Shown here: one piece after another, positions 19,656 through 61,387 of the stretch
How the letters are laid out: every line of letters starts with the position of its first letter
Position numbering within the stretch: position 1 is the stretch's first letter
Virus record (IMG/VR): IMGVR_UViG_3300003702_000496
Span: 19,253 to 83,252 of that record
Direction: 5' to 3' (one strand)
From: a virus
DNA length: 64,000 nt
Notes under the pieces: model-generated
The model's input: only the letters and a program-made list of their open reading frames with translations
What the model was told of the DNA's origin: nothing
Databases searched by the model: none
Made by a program: the position numbers and the translations under genes

Positions 19656-20182
19656 CCTGTAATAATATATTTTGGATGAGTGTGTATAGGATTACCTCTA
19701 TGTTGATACATCCATGCAGCAGGAAATATACAACCCATTCCTTCCTTTGGTTGTATGCGTATCTTCTCATATAGAAATTCTGTTTCACCTTCACCTTTCG
19801 GAATATCATTCAGATAGATAGTCCATACCAGAGCTCTGGCACAGTTTTCCCAATGAGTTATTTCCGCATGGAAATTGTGAAACCCCCCACCCATAGGATT
19901 TGTACGTTGTATCTTAATTTCGGGTGTAAGTAAAATTTTTGCTCCTCTATATGCACAAGGAAACTCTTCCAAGTATTCCCGTAACATGTCCATAGTAGCT
20001 TTGTGTACTGGTTCATATAATTCAGAATTTTCTGGAAGCCATATCTGCTTATCCTTACGACTGACACGATTGGGTTCTTCAATTCTTACATTCTTTGGAG
20101 AACTTTCAAACCAGTCTATAAGAGAGTCACATAGGTCAAAAGAAAGTGCATTATCAAATCCTCTTACAAAATCACGAATCAT
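19619..20182 (-). CDS. 2OG-Fe(II) oxygenase
   Basis: FHNFHAE...YLND...GETEFLY...FPA.W.Y.HRGNP...KYIITGW. Confidence 0.9.
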   Translation of the reverse strand: MIRDFVRGFDNALSFDLCDSLIDWFESSPKNVRIEEPNRVSRKDKQIWLPENSELYEPVHKATMDMLREYLEEFPCAYRGAKILLTPEIKIQRTNPMGGGFHNFHAEITHWENCARALVWTIYLNDIPKGEGETEFLYEKIRIQPKEGMGCIFPAAWMYQHRGNPIHTHPKYIITGWYWYPEEPSLP

Positions 20183-20789
20183 TATTCATATCAATATTTA
20201 AATTGCCCGCAACCATAATACGATCATGATCACAATCATGCGTAGGAACTTCATGCATAATCCATGCAGGGAAAACAATTAACTGAAAAGGTTTAGGCAT
20301 CACTTTGAGTTTCTTCTCGCTTGTAGGAAATATTAATGGAGAACAGAACTCACATGCGTATACACAATAGGTATACGACCAGAGAGATGGCCAATGATTA
20401 TGTACTTTTGCTTCTTGCCATTTCTGGTATATAAGACCCCAACTCTCTTTGATATATAATGGGACTTCTTTTTTTTCGCCGGTCGTATCGGTACGCGTAG
20501 CTACAGGACAAGCTTGTGCAATCTTAATTGCTTCATTTCCAACCACTTCAAAAGATTTATATAACTCATGCATATCCCATCGAGTCATAAGACACTTAGC
20601 CGCAGTACGAGTTTGTAAATGATCGCCTGCATCTCTTATGTCTCTTTCCAAATATTTGTTAAGAGACTTCAACAACGGCCGTTCTTTTTCGTTTATCGTT
20701 TTTATTTTTACTGGATACTTATCCGTAAAATTTGGCCAGGGCCCTCGTTCATTATTTTTTCCATATACTAAATCACTTAATGCACTCAT
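20172..20789 (-). CDS. 2OG-Fe(II) oxygenase-like protein
   Basis: HNHWPSLWS...FPAWIMHEV...RIMVAGN; paralog of 18942-19655. Confidence 0.8.
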   Translation of the reverse strand: MSALSDLVYGKNNERGPWPNFTDKYPVKIKTINEKERPLLKSLNKYLERDIRDAGDHLQTRTAAKCLMTRWDMHELYKSFEVVGNEAIKIAQACPVATRTDTTGEKKEVPLYIKESWGLIYQKWQEAKVHNHWPSLWSYTYCVYACEFCSPLIFPTSEKKLKVMPKPFQLIVFPAWIMHEVPTHDCDHDRIMVAGNLNIDMNNDS

Positions 20790-21487
20790 ATAACAATCTC
20801 TTGTATGTTGGTTTCATCTGGGTGATGACCATCAAATTTAGGTTCCTTTCCTTTAGGAAGAAAATAAAACCAGCCTGTTGCAATATATTTAAGGCCTTCG
20901 TTTGGTGTAACTCCTTTATGTGGATGTGTCCAACCTGCTGGCCAGATCACCGTTCTACCAGTTTTAGCCCTTACTAGTTTTTCTTGATAAGGAAACCATG
21001 TGCCACACCTCGCGTTATTCAAATAGATCATCCATGCAAGCATACGATAGGGATACGAACCAGAGTGCTCGTTATGCAATGCAAAGAATCCTTCCTTCTC
21101 GCCATCGTATCGTTGCACATTATAGAAAGGACATAATCTCCACTGACTTGCTTTGTTAATCGTATTCAGATAACCATATTTTTTTGTATAAGATTCCAGT
21201 GCAGAATGTATAAAGTAATAAATTGGATCGTTAATGGAATTGTCTGCGCCGAAGTCAAAAGTTTTAGTCGCACAAACCTTTTGACGATTCTTATTAAAAT
21301 ACGCAAGCCCAGAATCCTTGGAAGCATTATCGTCATAAACAGACTCAAAAAATTGAATTATTCTTTCGCAGTTCTTTCTGCCTGCCTCAACCCAATCTTT
21401 ACGAATTAATATCGGTTGAGAAGAACTTTCTTCAACAACACTTCGCGCAGAGTCAAGATCATATGTTTCAATAAAATCAAAAAACAT
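20786..21487 (-). CDS. 2OG-Fe(II) oxygenase
   Basis: HNE...WMIYLN...WPAGWTHPHKG...KYIATGW. Confidence 0.88.
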   Translation of the reverse strand: MFFDFIETYDLDSARSVVEESSSQPILIRKDWVEAGRKNCERIIQFFESVYDDNASKDSGLAYFNKNRQKVCATKTFDFGADNSINDPIYYFIHSALESYTKKYGYLNTINKASQWRLCPFYNVQRYDGEKEGFFALHNEHSGSYPYRMLAWMIYLNNARCGTWFPYQEKLVRAKTGRTVIWPAGWTHPHKGVTPNEGLKYIATGWFYFLPKGKEPKFDGHHPDETNIQEIVI

Positions 21488-21725
21488 TTTTCATAAATAT
21501 ATATTCGTTTTTTCCCACACTGTTTTCTACCGTGAGGAAAATAGAATTTATATTCTTTTTCTTTACAGGAACAAAGTTTGAAAGCTTCTTGGAATAATAA
21601 TGCGGTACGCCATTCGCCAATTTCATTTTATCATAAGAATCCATGTCAGAAGAGATTTCCGTAATCGTACCGTTCACAGTCTCCCCATACTCATTTTTAT
21701 ATTTTACTATATCACCAATATTCAT
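21477..21725 (-). CDS. Hypothetical protein
   Basis: Likely start MNIGDIVKY at 21725; the longer track start overlaps an RNA element. Confidence 0.6.
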   Translation of the reverse strand: MNIGDIVKYKNEYGETVNGTITEISSDMDSYDKMKLANGVPHYYSKKLSNFVPVKKKNINSIFLTVENSVGKNEYIFMKNVF

Positions 21726-21741
21726 ATTCTTTTCTTTCAAG

Positions 21742-21844
21742 ATGGCAGGGAAAGGAATCGAACCTTTCTGCACCGTAATCTGATATACGTCGTTGCTTAA
21801 TCAGAAATATCCACAACGTAAAACCCAGCGACCAGGCCTCCCAT
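21742..21844 (-). ncRNA. tRNA-like structured RNA with T-arm, CCA and internal pseudoknot
   Basis: GAAAGG-TTCGATT-CCTTTC T-arm then CCTGCCA; 5' ATGGGAGG pairs with CCTGCCAT; CGTTG/CAACG helix and TCTGAT/ATCAGA pseudoknot; no anticodon arm. Confidence 0.6.
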
Positions 21845-21862
21845 AAAAGTTAACAATAACAT

Positions 21863-21891
21863 ATACTAACACATAAAGAAATGTTTGTCAA
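21863..21891 (-). promoter_or_regulatory. sigma70-like early promoter
   Basis: TTGACA-17-TAGTAT. Confidence 0.75.
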
Positions 21892-21894
21892 GAG

Positions 21895-22431
21895 TTATTT
21901 TCTAAAATTTAATTCCACTTTAATTTGATTAGGGTCATATATGAATAGCTGATCAATGGCATTCGGAGGATCACTTTTTTCATTATTTCCTTCACTCAAA
22001 AGAACCCGATTATACTTATAAGAAATTTTATGATCGTCCAACAGATTTTGTGTTTCCTTCAAAAGCTTTACATTACAACGAAATGCGATATGATCAATTG
22101 TACCAGAAGAAAAAGTAAAAGTTCCTGCTGAGACTTCCACAAGATGTATATATGCAGTTTTAGGATATGGCATATATCCCATATAATCAGATAGATAGTG
22201 TATATTGAGATCGAGATACAACCAAGCTCCATTAAAAGGAAACTTCGGCCGGGGTCCATTAATAAATCCAAGTATCTCATAGAACTTTATCGTTTCTTTA
22301 AGATACTTCGTATTAATATTCACATGGTCAAAACTCATTATAACACTTGAATCTCCCCCTGGCGCATTTAGGTCATTCACTGGAATATCTTTCCATACCA
22401 TCGTCTTGCGAGAATTATTTAACATATTCAT
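21895..22431 (-). CDS. VOC / glyoxalase family protein
   Basis: FDHVNI...FY..LG..GPRPKFPFNGAWLY...IDHIAF...QLFIYDPNQIKVELNF. Confidence 0.85.
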   Translation of the reverse strand: MNMLNNSRKTMVWKDIPVNDLNAPGGDSSVIMSFDHVNINTKYLKETIKFYEILGFINGPRPKFPFNGAWLYLDLNIHYLSDYMGYMPYPKTAYIHLVEVSAGTFTFSSGTIDHIAFRCNVKLLKETQNLLDDHKISYKYNRVLLSEGNNEKSDPPNAIDQLFIYDPNQIKVELNFRK

Positions 22432-22433
22432 AA

Positions 22434-22784
22434 TTAATGCAAAGTCGGTGAATTATCATCTGGGAGTTTTATTTTGCTCATCTCCAAGAAAACTTTTCGC
22501 GCTTCGCCGGGGCCCAACAGCGTTTCATAAAGTTTAAATAAATTTGCACCAACACATCCGGCGACCATTAATGCTTCAGTCATACCATTTGTTTTTTCCA
22601 GTTGGTGCATCATAAAAGTGTTTATCCTAAAAGATATTTCTTCTAAAGCTTCAGGAGAGTTTTCATACTCAGGTCGTTTTGATTTCTTTTTCATGGGGAA
22701 GTTTCCATTAATTGTTGTCAGTTTTTGAGGTGGCGGCCTCTTCTTGGAGTTTAAACCAATCTCTGGTAAAAGGACATTCTGCAA
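22434..22784 (-). CDS. Hypothetical protein
   Basis: ORF in operon; true start probably MKKKSK. Confidence 0.5.
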   Translation of the reverse strand: MQNVLLPEIGLNSKKRPPPQKLTTINGNFPMKKKSKRPEYENSPEALEEISFRINTFMMHQLEKTNGMTEALMVAGCVGANLFKLYETLLGPGEARKVFLEMSKIKLPDDNSPTLH

Positions 22785-22893
22785 GAGTTTTTTTTAATTG
22801 TATAACATGTTCTTGCATATCTTTAATTTCTTTTTTCATAGAAGATAATTGTCGAGTTAATCTTTCATTCTTTATAAATTGATTATGTTTCAT
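22708..22893 (-). CDS. Small coiled-coil hypothetical protein
   Basis: ATGA-coupled ORF. Confidence 0.5.
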   Translation of the reverse strand: MKHNQFIKNERLTRQLSSMKKEIKDMQEHVIQLKKTLAECPFTRDWFKLQEEAATSKTDNN

Positions 22894-23114
22894 AATATTT
22901 CATCTTTACTATTTAAATACTTATCCCAGAACTCGTCCCACATATCTGTCTTATGAGTCTCAGTTTTATAGAAAATATCAGATTTACCAGCGGGCCAATC
23001 TTGGCCGCCTGGATGATCACCATGTTTATGTTTGAAATTCTTCAATGCTCTATCAAAGATCGTTTGTTCAAACTCAGTATACACTCCACTCCAACGTATG
23101 ACACTACGACTCAT
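22890..23114 (-). CDS. Hypothetical protein
   Basis: ATGA-coupled ORF with RBS. Confidence 0.55.
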   Translation of the reverse strand: MSRSVIRWSGVYTEFEQTIFDRALKNFKHKHGDHPGGQDWPAGKSDIFYKTETHKTDMWDEFWDKYLNSKDEIL

Positions 23115-23323
23115 AATAATTCCTCTTCAATTAGTCCCGAAAGTATTAAATGAAACTTTCCCCCCAGTTGATGACATCGTGCCCAACCTATATTATACCC
23201 CCAAGGTATATCTGATCTTGCAATTCTTAGATGTTCACAAACAAGTTTTTCTTCCATACTTCCATCGTTATTTTTTAATAGTGTTAGAATTTCATTTCGG
23301 AGACATATATCTTTTTTCAACAT
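23111..23323 (-). CDS. Hypothetical protein
   Basis: Coupled ORF in operon. Confidence 0.5.
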   Translation of the reverse strand: MLKKDICLRNEILTLLKNNDGSMEEKLVCEHLRIARSDIPWGYNIGWARCHQLGGKFHLILSGLIEEELL

Positions 23324-23326
23324 GTA

Positions 23327-24091
23327 TTAATTTCCATCAAAAAGAACTTGCATTTTATTAATATTTTGTTCAAATATTTTTGTATTTATATTCATACTAA
23401 ATGATCTTCGTTCACCAATACCCTTAAAAGGATATGCTGTATGTCTTAGATTAGCAGGGAACAAATACCAATTACCAACCTTTGGAACAAATCCTATTCC
23501 ATCATTTTCAAAGAACGCTTTCTCATTAGGACCGCTATTATTCAGAATTTCCAAAACTCCGTTTAAGTCAATATGTTTTTTGTAGTTAGATTTAATGCTT
23601 TTTTTATGTTCCTTTGATAAATCGGGAACTTTCAAAAATCCTACACAAGTTAATTCAGAATCTGGGTGGGTGTGGATGGGATTATAATCTCCAGCAAAAG
23701 ATTGTACATACCAAGCAGATATAACATCAACTTGGATTTCATTAATATTTTTCAATGCTTGTTCTTTAGGAATAATGATAAAATTTTGTTCTGGAATATA
23801 AAGTTCATTATAATATCCAGCTATATATCTTTGTACTTGTTTACCAAACCATTGACCCCATTTATTAATAACATCAATCGGAATTTTAAGTTCCTGTTTA
23901 ACTTGACCAACGAGGGTATGTGAAAAATCTTCTGATTTTAATAGTTCTTCATCTTTAATAATATCATCACAACCTTTATTAAGATCAATTACTAATTCTT
24001 TTGGTAATTCAGCATAACCGATTGGCGGACCAAATGGAAAGTATGTTTGTAAAGGATTTCCGAAATCGTGTGGGGGTAAAGGAGTTTTCAT
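23327..24091 (-). CDS. 2OG-Fe(II) oxygenase-like protein
   Basis: AW.V....DYNPIHTH...FPANLRHTAYPF...ERRSFSMN. Confidence 0.85.
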   Translation of the reverse strand: MKTPLPPHDFGNPLQTYFPFGPPIGYAELPKELVIDLNKGCDDIIKDEELLKSEDFSHTLVGQVKQELKIPIDVINKWGQWFGKQVQRYIAGYYNELYIPEQNFIIIPKEQALKNINEIQVDVISAWYVQSFAGDYNPIHTHPDSELTCVGFLKVPDLSKEHKKSIKSNYKKHIDLNGVLEILNNSGPNEKAFFENDGIGFVPKVGNWYLFPANLRHTAYPFKGIGERRSFSMNINTKIFEQNINKMQVLFDGN

Positions 24092-60181: not shown

Positions 60182-60362
60182 TGTGGGGTTAACCATAGAC
60201 CCCACACGGATGTATTTCGGCATCACCCTAGATGTCACTAGGCTAAAGTGAATAATCTGTCTATCGTAAAATAGGCCTCCAACTTCAGCATCAACTCTTC
60301 CTTTCTGTATAACCAAGGGCTTCCCAAGGCTTAACTCAATACTCGCCTTAGTGCGTTAGTAT
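60182..60362 (-). other. Structured element with 17-codon ORF downstream of tmRNA
   Basis: Hairpins flanking AGAAAGGAAG-RBS and MLKLEAYFTIDRLFTLA (60238-60291). Confidence 0.4.
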
Positions 60363-60365
60363 TAA

Positions 60366-60655
60366 GTGGTAGGTATTCTGTTGCCAGGAACCTACCGAAC
60401 CCCGACAGACTATGCAGCTAGTGCATAATCCTCAAATGCCTCATTATCGTTGGCACTTATTATTTTGACCGATAAGGTGGTCAATCCACAGTTCTCCACG
60501 TTCCTATACATTGTCAGTCGATCCTAGTTCGCCCCCATCAAGAGTACACCTTGAAATATTACTTTCGTCAGTTACTCACCCGATGTACTCATGGTGGAGG
60601 CGACGGGTACTGCCCCCGTGTCCTGTACAATTTTCAGTTCGTATCATCAAACTGT
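60366..60655 (-). ncRNA. ssrA: Permuted two-piece tmRNA; tag (A)ANDNEAFEDYALAA
   Basis: Acceptor piece GGACACGGGGGCAGTACCCGTCGCCTCCACCA (60623-60592) precedes coding piece GGGGGCGAACTAGGATCGAC (from 60536); G3-U70; tag at 60454-60410; CCTGGCAACAGAA hairpin. Confidence 0.93.
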
Positions 60656-60660
60656 AACTA

Positions 60661-60691
60661 TATTTATACCATATTAAACCAGTTTTGTCAA
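60661..60691 (-). promoter_or_regulatory. Overlapping sigma70 and T4-late promoter for tmRNA
   Basis: TTGACA-17-TATAAA whose -10 is a full TATAAATA. Confidence 0.75.
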
Positions 60692-61387
60692 GTGTTTATT
60701 TTGTTCTTTCCATTCTGTAACGGAATCTTTTAATGCTTCCAAATAATCAAATTTTTTCTTCACAAACTCTTGTACTGTACCATCTTCTGTCACTACCAGA
60801 ATTACTATTTGTGAAACATCAATTCCAGTTAACTCAGTAAACATCTCTGCATATGCAGAACCTTGAATATAATAATTTTCGTTCCAAGCATCATCCCGTT
60901 CTCTGGTTGATGTCTTAAAATCTATAACAGACAATACATTATCATATTCTGCGATACAATCAGCTCTGCCTGCTACCTTATATTTGTCACTATATAATCC
61001 ACACTCTTGGGCATAGATATTATCAATGTTACATAATACTTTATTTTTTAATTGAGTGAATAAGCACCAAGGCAGAAAATCTTTTTCATGTTTTTTCCAT
61101 TTATCAGGATAATCTAGAGATACATTATTTAAATAATCCTCACACATATGATGAACTTTGGTGCCTCTAGCTGCAGCTTTACCAGCAACATAATTGGCAA
61201 CATCATTTCCCACACGTTTACGCCATTCCACCAATCCTTTCTTATTACGAATTGATAAAACGGTTGTAATAGAAGGATATTCATTTCCTTCTGGTGTCAC
61301 ATAAAAACGATTTTTATTGATTGTTTTAGTTTTTAGTTTCGGTATTAGTGACGGAACTGTTTTCTGGTGTTTGTATGTCATCTTCAC
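60674..61387 (-). CDS. PD-(D/E)XK exonuclease
   Basis: YPSITTVL, WR.RVG, RGT.VH..CE.YL, AGR.DCIAEY...IDFKTS, Y..Q..AYA.M. Confidence 0.88.
   Translation of the reverse strand: MKMTYKHQKTVPSLIPKLKTKTINKNRFYVTPEGNEYPSITTVLSIRNKKGLVEWRKRVGNDVANYVAGKAAARGTKVHHMCEDYLNNVSLDYPDKWKKHEKDFLPWCLFTQLKNKVLCNIDNIYAQECGLYSDKYKVAGRADCIAEYDNVLSVIDFKTSTRERDDAWNENYYIQGSAYAEMFTELTGIDVSQIVILVVTEDGTVQEFVKKKFDYLEALKDSVTEWKEQNKHLTKLV

Follow-up and report, generated by a model that had tools for sequence, protein, structure and literature searches.

A probable gene for a non-decoding, tRNA-like RNA behind a predicted early promoter in an uncultured marine T4-like phage

Phage RNAs that resemble tRNA and the setting of the locus

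Phage T4 has been known since the 1970s to make non-decoding look-alikes of tRNA. The one that bears most closely on the locus described here is species 1 RNA, or RNA C, encoded by rnaC (AF158101, 70908-71046), a molecule of 139 nt that combines an acceptor stem containing two U.U mismatches with a canonical T arm and a 100-nt body unlike that of tRNA. Beside the T arm stands a hairpin with the loop CGTCAA, complementary to an upstream TTGACG; in five Tevenvirinae versions of the gene the T stem and the acceptor stem co-vary, and TTGACG and CGTCAA are invariant though their surroundings diverge. The family as defined by blastn is confined to the Tevenvirinae, and rnaC is neither in Rfam nor called by ARAGORN. 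The RNA is made from the transcript of the tRNA cluster, in which it is the last gene, and is classed as late (PMC2330249, PMC9697503); it is a stable product (PMC9697503), and its function is unknown (PMC3014915, PMC9697503).

The locus that we compare with it lies on the minus strand of a 64-kb stretch of viral DNA (the window), which is part of an 83-kb IMG/VR virus record with an estimated completeness of 46%. The phage is T4-like, as a T4 gp5-type baseplate hub is encoded in the window, and this hub protein is at most 35% identical to its counterpart in any cultured phage. Nearly identical DNA is present in the metagenomes of 12 studies, which sampled hydrothermal vents, cold seeps and deep marine sites. 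The minus-strand genes are densely packed and several 2OG-Fe(II) oxygenases are encoded, with three paralogues around the RNA gene (Table 1). Immediate neighbors of the RNA are a gene for a 178-aa protein upstream, which had no match in Pfam or PHROGs and which, from its motifs alone, we take to be VOC/glyoxalase-like, and a gene for an 82-aa protein downstream. Elsewhere in the window ARAGORN and Rfam identified a tRNA-Thr and a complete two-piece tmRNA of the alpha type, a type that may indicate an alphaproteobacterial host. Genes for SmpB and for a CCA-adding enzyme were not found in the record, which says little at 46% completeness.

The RNA encoded at this locus appears to be of the same kind as T4 rnaC without being a member of its family, the likeness being one of architecture. 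Both belong to T4-like phages and have a mismatch-tolerant acceptor-like stem, a canonical T arm and a non-decoding body unlike tRNA, and in both the loop of the hairpin on the T-arm side is complementary to an upstream segment. They differ in length (about 100 nt in the window, 139 nt in T4) and share sequence only in the T loop. The window RNA is located outside a tRNA cluster, with its own early-type promoter and at the head of a protein-coding operon. The complementary segment also differs, since in T4 it is the loop of a second hairpin, so that the two loops kiss, whereas in the window RNA it is a single strand.

The tRNA-like domain of tmRNA likewise joins an acceptor stem to a T arm with no anticodon arm between them, has YCTGG after the acceptor stem and is accompanied by body pseudoknots, for which the window RNA has a candidate. 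The window RNA differs in that it has no conserved G3.U70 pair, tag frame or encoded CCA, that its T loop is canonical and not reduced, and that it does not match the tmRNA models of Rfam. YrlA RNAs (RF02553), which have also been reported from phages (PMC4201824), are non-coding RNAs with a tRNA-like T arm and an acceptor-like module; their tRNA-like domain is internal to a Ro-binding stem made by the ends of the RNA, whereas the ends of the window RNA form the acceptor stem itself. Comparative predictions of tRNAs and tRNA-like RNAs in uncultured phages have been made from IMG/VR (PMC10690425), and the examples described in the text of that paper overlap ARAGORN tRNA calls, whereas the window RNA receives none.

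Promoter, anatomy and body of the RNA

The RNA is preceded by a conserved, predicted sigma-70-type early promoter, TTGACA-17-TAGTAT with a TG extension, which is the best promoter-like site within the surrounding 4 kb. It places the start of transcription about 12 nt before the RNA, in agreement with a first-pass annotation of this DNA. In contig L130 and in one X15 contig, a 2-nt insertion converts the -10 element to TATAGT and leaves the spacer unchanged. No terminator was found after the RNA and before the 82-aa gene, and this gene is therefore taken to be co-transcribed with the RNA, which would be the first element of an early polycistronic transcript.

Table 1. Positions, in the 64-kb window, of the RNA, its promoter and other features discussed in the text
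Feature	Position	Strand	Remarks
178-aa gene	21895-22431	minus	upstream of the RNA; used to fetch window-type relatives
-35 hexamer TTGACA	21886-21891	minus	invariant in L127, L128 and L130
Extended -10, TGT-TAGTAT	21863-21871	minus	hexamer TAGTAT at 21868-21863; 17-nt spacer
Predicted 5' leader	21845-21857	minus	about 11-14 nt; start site deduced from promoter geometry
Acceptor-like stem, 5' strand (A)TGGGAGG	21837-21844	minus	pairs with 21742-21749
D-like hairpin CCTGG-TCG-CTGGG	21824-21836	minus	loop variable among relatives
Upstream strand TACGTTGT	21813-21820	minus	contains stem 1 CGTTG (21818-21814); all 8 nt can pair with the loop of hairpin 2
Hairpin stem 2, 5' strand TCTGAT	21800-21805	minus	invariant in all relatives
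Hairpin 2 loop, 15 nt	21785-21799	minus	holds CAACG (21795-21791) and ACGACGTA, both complementary to the upstream strand
Hairpin stem 2, 3' strand ATCAGA	21779-21784	minus	invariant
Linker TTACGGTGCA, 10 nt	21769-21778	minus	variable-loop position; invariant in all relatives and four metagenome runs
T arm GAAAGG-TTCGATT-CCTTTC	21750-21768	minus	6-bp stem, canonical loop; invariant
Acceptor-like stem, 3' strand CCTGCCA(T)	21742-21749	minus	21746 is G in the window, T in L127-L132
82-aa gene	21477-21725	minus	downstream of the RNA, start 17 nt away; relatives via family alignment
Three 2OG-Fe(II) oxygenase paralogues	20172-24091	minus	20172-20789, 20786-21487 and 23327-24091
tmRNA	60319-60695	minus	two-piece, permuted alpha-type, called by ARAGORN and Rfam at 60319-60687; own TTGACA promoter, G3.U70, encoded CCA, tag ANDNEAFEDYALAA

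About 100 nt long, the RNA consists of an acceptor-like stem, a small hairpin, a non-tRNA body of about 55 nt, a T arm and a 3' acceptor strand. The same annotation had described a tRNA mimic devoid of an anticodon arm, and the T arm, the acceptor-like stem and the D-like hairpin of that description are all borne out by the sequence. Because the T arm abuts the 3' acceptor strand, the two would form a tRNA-like coaxial stack of 12-13 bp, and in this respect the RNA resembles tRNA (RF00005): its T arm has a TTCRANY loop and is stacked on an acceptor stem of 7 bp. A single copy of the T-loop motif GGTTCRANTCC is present in the 64-kb window, where 0.09 would be expected. Six of the seven acceptor pairs are formed (21843-21837 with 21749-21743), the exception being a G.G mismatch at 21840/21746. 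The helix had also been said to contain CCA; it does, but the CCA is base-paired within the stem, and a free 3' CCA is not encoded. The minimum free energy of the whole RNA is unremarkable (z = -0.87), and such folding was not relied on, as near-identical variants gave differing folds.

More complex is the body, in which an H-type pseudoknot had been proposed to take the place of the anticodon and variable arms. Both crossing helices exist in the window, CGTTG/CAACG (stem 1) and TCTGAT/ATCAGA (stem 2), and crossing perfect helices of at least 5 and at least 6 bp arose in 66 of 3000 dinucleotide shuffles of the body (2.2%). The upstream strand can also pair with the loop in an alternative register of 8 bp, UACGUUGU/ACGACGUA (RNA letters), which is more stable than stem 1. 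Within the window lineage stem 2 shows zero variation. Stem 1 has changed twice, C21818-to-U and C21792-to-U, leaving G.U pairs in both cases, and for C21818-to-U the wobble pair is kept in both registers; these changes are equally compatible with the 8-bp register and with a fully nested rod, which is the fold preferred by RNAalifold. No covariation for the pseudoknot was found in the window lineage, where four distinct window-type sequences give little power, and the complementarity of loop and upstream strand in the window is not unusual (shuffle test, P=0.37). A compensatory change in the D-like hairpin, whose closing G-C pair is replaced by A-U in L130 and an X8 contig, counts against the nested rod, albeit as a single event. 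The acceptor stem has a pair-preserving change too, G.U to A-U. We lean slightly against a pseudoknotted body while regarding it as a serious candidate. Kissing of the D-like hairpin loop with the large loop was ruled out, as the small loop varies freely.

Comparison with known families sets the RNA apart from tRNA. ARAGORN makes no tRNA call at the locus at default thresholds, with or without introns, as the first-pass annotation had anticipated, and Rfam 15 yields nothing relevant at E<=10, including tRNA (RF00005), tmRNA, YrlA and manA; the relatives gave no Rfam match either. Among 50,697 phage records, blastn with the locus as query yielded no match, to T4 rnaC or otherwise. When the ARAGORN threshold is relaxed to 80%, near-identical relatives are read as Arg(tct), Ile(gat) and Leu(aag), so the anticodon is not conserved, and with 'anticodons' this inconsistent the RNA is therefore not a decoding or intron-containing tRNA. 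There is no 5-bp stem with a 7-nt loop carrying U33, no intact anticodon arm flanked by a split D helix and no conserved anticodon arm. A decoy for anticodon nucleases, one of the functions suggested earlier, is unlikely for an RNA that has no anticodon loop, and the suggestion of a Y-RNA-like species found no YrlA match in Rfam at E<=10.

The canonical T arm and acceptor stem would also suit a working tRNA of unusual form, either one containing an intron or one with a rewired, pseudoknotted D arm, and ARAGORN does call the more distant element of L006 (see below) as a 91-nt tRNA-Arg. This explanation must nevertheless accommodate the lack of a default call even when introns are allowed, the shifting relaxed anticodons, the missing U33-bearing stem and loop, a 29-nt insertion in the middle of the body in L128, and the lack of an Rfam tRNA match at a threshold as permissive as E<=10. 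We find it scarcely credible.

Variation among relatives

Window-type relatives were found through an alignment of metagenome homologues of the 178-aa protein. The promoter and the RNA are in the same place in L127, in which this protein is 99% identical, in L128, L129 and L132 (74%), and in L130 and L131 (72%). Both are entirely absent from relatives at about 60% protein identity, and so the RNA would be either dispensable or recent. At the DNA level, the flanking genes of the window are 83-90% identical to those of L128 and L130, the 5' half of the RNA (88-92%) is about as variable as these flanks, and the 3' half (21742-21791) is 98% identical. Contigs of four metagenome runs contain no DNA variant in 21742-21791 and about 15 variant sites within 60 nt of the adjacent gene. 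This distribution points to strong selection on the 3' half of the RNA. The spacer between the RNA and the start codon of the 82-aa gene is also conserved among the relatives.

The sole difference in the 3' half is at 21746, where the acceptor pair 21840/21746 is G.G in the window, G.U in L127 and L130, and A-U in L128. The G.G mismatch is what one might see in a decaying, functionless tRNA pseudogene at a variable tRNA island, as is the loss of the element at about 60% identity of the upstream protein, and a bona fide tRNA-Lys does occupy a comparable region of L028. Decay is hard to reconcile, however, with a 3' half that is 98% identical between flanks of 83-90%, with 50 nt free of variants across four runs, with a conserved promoter, in which one change rebuilds the -10 element and keeps the spacer, and with compensatory and wobble-preserving changes in the RNA. 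A pseudogene is therefore very unlikely in our view, and the pattern of variation agrees with an RNA gene under selection rather than with a relic.

The same acceptor pair bears on the reading of the RNA as a miniature tmRNA, made in the first-pass annotation, or as an alanine-accepting minihelix. G1-C72, G2-C71, G3.U70 and A73 are the determinants recognized by AlaRS and constitute the identity of tRNA-Ala and tmRNA, and one register of L127:585-687 and L130:1830-1932 has all of them; in addition, the YCTGG just after the acceptor stem recalls the D-loop analogue of tmRNA. Yet at 3:70 the window has G.G and L128 has A-U, and G3.U70 is missing from the other relatives. For a miniature tmRNA there is moreover no tag frame, SmpB was not found in the partial genome, and the phage already possesses a two-piece tmRNA that is complete, has G3.U70 and has its CCA encoded. 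Both forms of this reading are most improbable.

Other candidates for the conserved segment were rejected. A 15-aa ORF from an ATG in the acceptor stem has no ribosome-binding site; four of the five L130 substitutions change a residue and its start becomes GTG, the frame differs in L128, and the ORF that L043 has in this position, of 19 aa, is unrelated. Nor is the segment the 3' end of a host tRNA or an attP-like fragment, as the 23-mer has no exact match in 185,579 genomes and a matching, co-varying 5' strand is present.

One sublineage has a 29-nt palindromic hairpin inserted directly 5' of TCTGAT (L128:1290-1320, L129 and L132; also seen in run X8). The insertion site therefore tolerates a whole extra arm.

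More distant relatives were reached through an alignment of the 82-aa family, which led to viral contigs with other tRNA-like elements upstream of this gene on the same strand. In L043 and L042 the element has a promoter of its own, TTGACA-17-TATAGT; its acceptor stem is perfectly paired over 7 bp and its T arm is canonical. Further tRNA-like elements lie upstream of the gene in L055, L005 and L006. The bodies of all these elements cannot be aligned with that of the window RNA. Each element has a hairpin immediately 5' of its T arm, and the loop of this hairpin is complementary to a segment further upstream, the pairing being AGCG/CGCT in L005 and AACG/CGTT in L006. Shuffle tests of this complementarity gave P values of 0.022 for L043, 0.135 for L055, 0.046 for L006, 0.045 for T4 rnaC and 0.37 for the window; the combined Fisher P, T4 rnaC included, is about 0.004, for a test devised after the pattern had been seen.

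The placement of these elements is relevant to the possibility that the RNA is a cis-acting processing or stability module, in which the tRNA-like fold recruits RNase P or 3'-processing enzymes and sets the 5' end of the downstream mRNA, comparable to tRNA punctuation or mascRNA, with an excised RNA that has no function. In favor of this, the RNA has the promoter directly on one side and the 82-aa gene on the other, no terminator intervenes, and the spacer before the start codon is conserved; the order in L043 is likewise promoter, RNA and protein gene, the last with a good ribosome-binding site. In L005, L006 and L055, however, other genes separate the element from the 82-aa gene, over a distance of 2-3.5 kb. 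The invariant linker and hairpin strand (21769-21791), moreover, would be superfluous in a simple RNase P signal, and T4 rnaC is a stable product (PMC9697503). We regard a purely cis-acting module as unlikely, though deserving of some weight.

Viral contigs offered several further observations. L028, whose 82-aa gene is the most similar relative of that in the window, has a bona fide tRNA-Lys(UUU) at L028:386-460, about 1.9 kb upstream of this gene; this is the region that holds tRNA-like RNAs in the other relatives. L026:1250-1375 and L055:2520-2645, which precede the L005-type and the L055 element, respectively, are GC-richer, contain no ORF and have long complementary purine/pyrimidine runs (GGAGAGAGAGAG ... 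CTCTCTCTCT); they may represent further structured RNA. Still smaller tRNA top halves are present in L013, L016, L018 and L021 and also in L011; they consist solely of an acceptor stem of 6 bp, a canonical T arm and a D-loop-like strand of 10-14 nt, lack any further arm, and are not called as such by ARAGORN. In phage tRNA arrays, L010 (an array of nine tRNAs) and L017/L020 carry tRNA-framed elements with non-tRNA bodies, one of which is a 15-bp hairpin, while another contains a second T-arm-like hairpin.

Searches for additional members were otherwise unproductive. A pattern scan of the viral contigs with the T arm and 3' acceptor strand of the window returned only the unrelated, GC-rich L002 (L002:1-700, minus strand), which has an identical 23-nt T arm and 3' acceptor strand with no matching 5' strand nearby, adjoining tRNA-like pieces separated by long inserts. 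The L043-type T arm retrieved only L042 and L043's own contig, and a scan with the L005 5' motif gave chance matches only. No viral relatives of the 178-aa protein were found among the viral contigs with either the single sequence or the alignment, and tblastn of the 82-aa protein against cultured phages gave no match.

Predicted processing, possible function and a proposed wider class

We consider it probable that the locus genuinely encodes a non-decoding, tRNA-like RNA about 100 nt in length, which is driven by an early promoter, is of the same kind as T4 rnaC and most likely acts in trans on a protein that recognizes the top half of tRNA. A minihelix with a T loop is recognized by RNase P, by 3'-trimming enzymes, by the CCA-adding enzyme and by T-loop modification enzymes, and processing of the early transcript would therefore probably release the RNA from its 5' end, after which the RNA would be stabilized like a tRNA. 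The leader of about 12 nt would be cut off by host RNase P, of which the RNA is a plausible substrate. An endonuclease and exonucleases would trim the 3' side, after which CCA would be added, a step that we propose because no CCA is encoded.

The mature, stable RNA would display the acceptor end and elbow of a tRNA, with a body closed by a hairpin that perhaps pairs with the upstream strand. Its action would most likely be in trans, through occupation of a protein, from the host or the phage, that recognizes the tRNA top half, and candidate targets are a processing or modifying enzyme or a tRNA-directed defense factor acting at the acceptor end or elbow. A function as a decoy or sponge is speculative.

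A bolder proposal is that an ancient class of RNA is common to T4-like phages, from those of enterobacteria to those of the deep sea. In this class a tRNA top half would be joined to a body locked by pairing of the T-arm-side hairpin with an upstream strand or loop, and the window RNA, L043, L005/L006 and T4 rnaC would be members. Such RNAs would be decoys or inhibitors of a host factor that recognizes the acceptor end or elbow, for example a tRNA-directed defense enzyme. We think this rather improbable as it stands.

The comparison brings out an invariant 3' half, complementarity between a loop and an upstream strand, and a 3:70 pair that varies among G.U, A-U and G.G. Genes of this sort are missed entirely by standard tRNA and Rfam annotation. 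The design of T4 RNA C appears to recur in a very distant, uncultured marine T4-like phage, where it has its own predicted early promoter and is strongly conserved, which argues that the design is selected and not a relic. If the idea of a shared decoy class is true, T4 RNA C would at last have a function, 50 years on.
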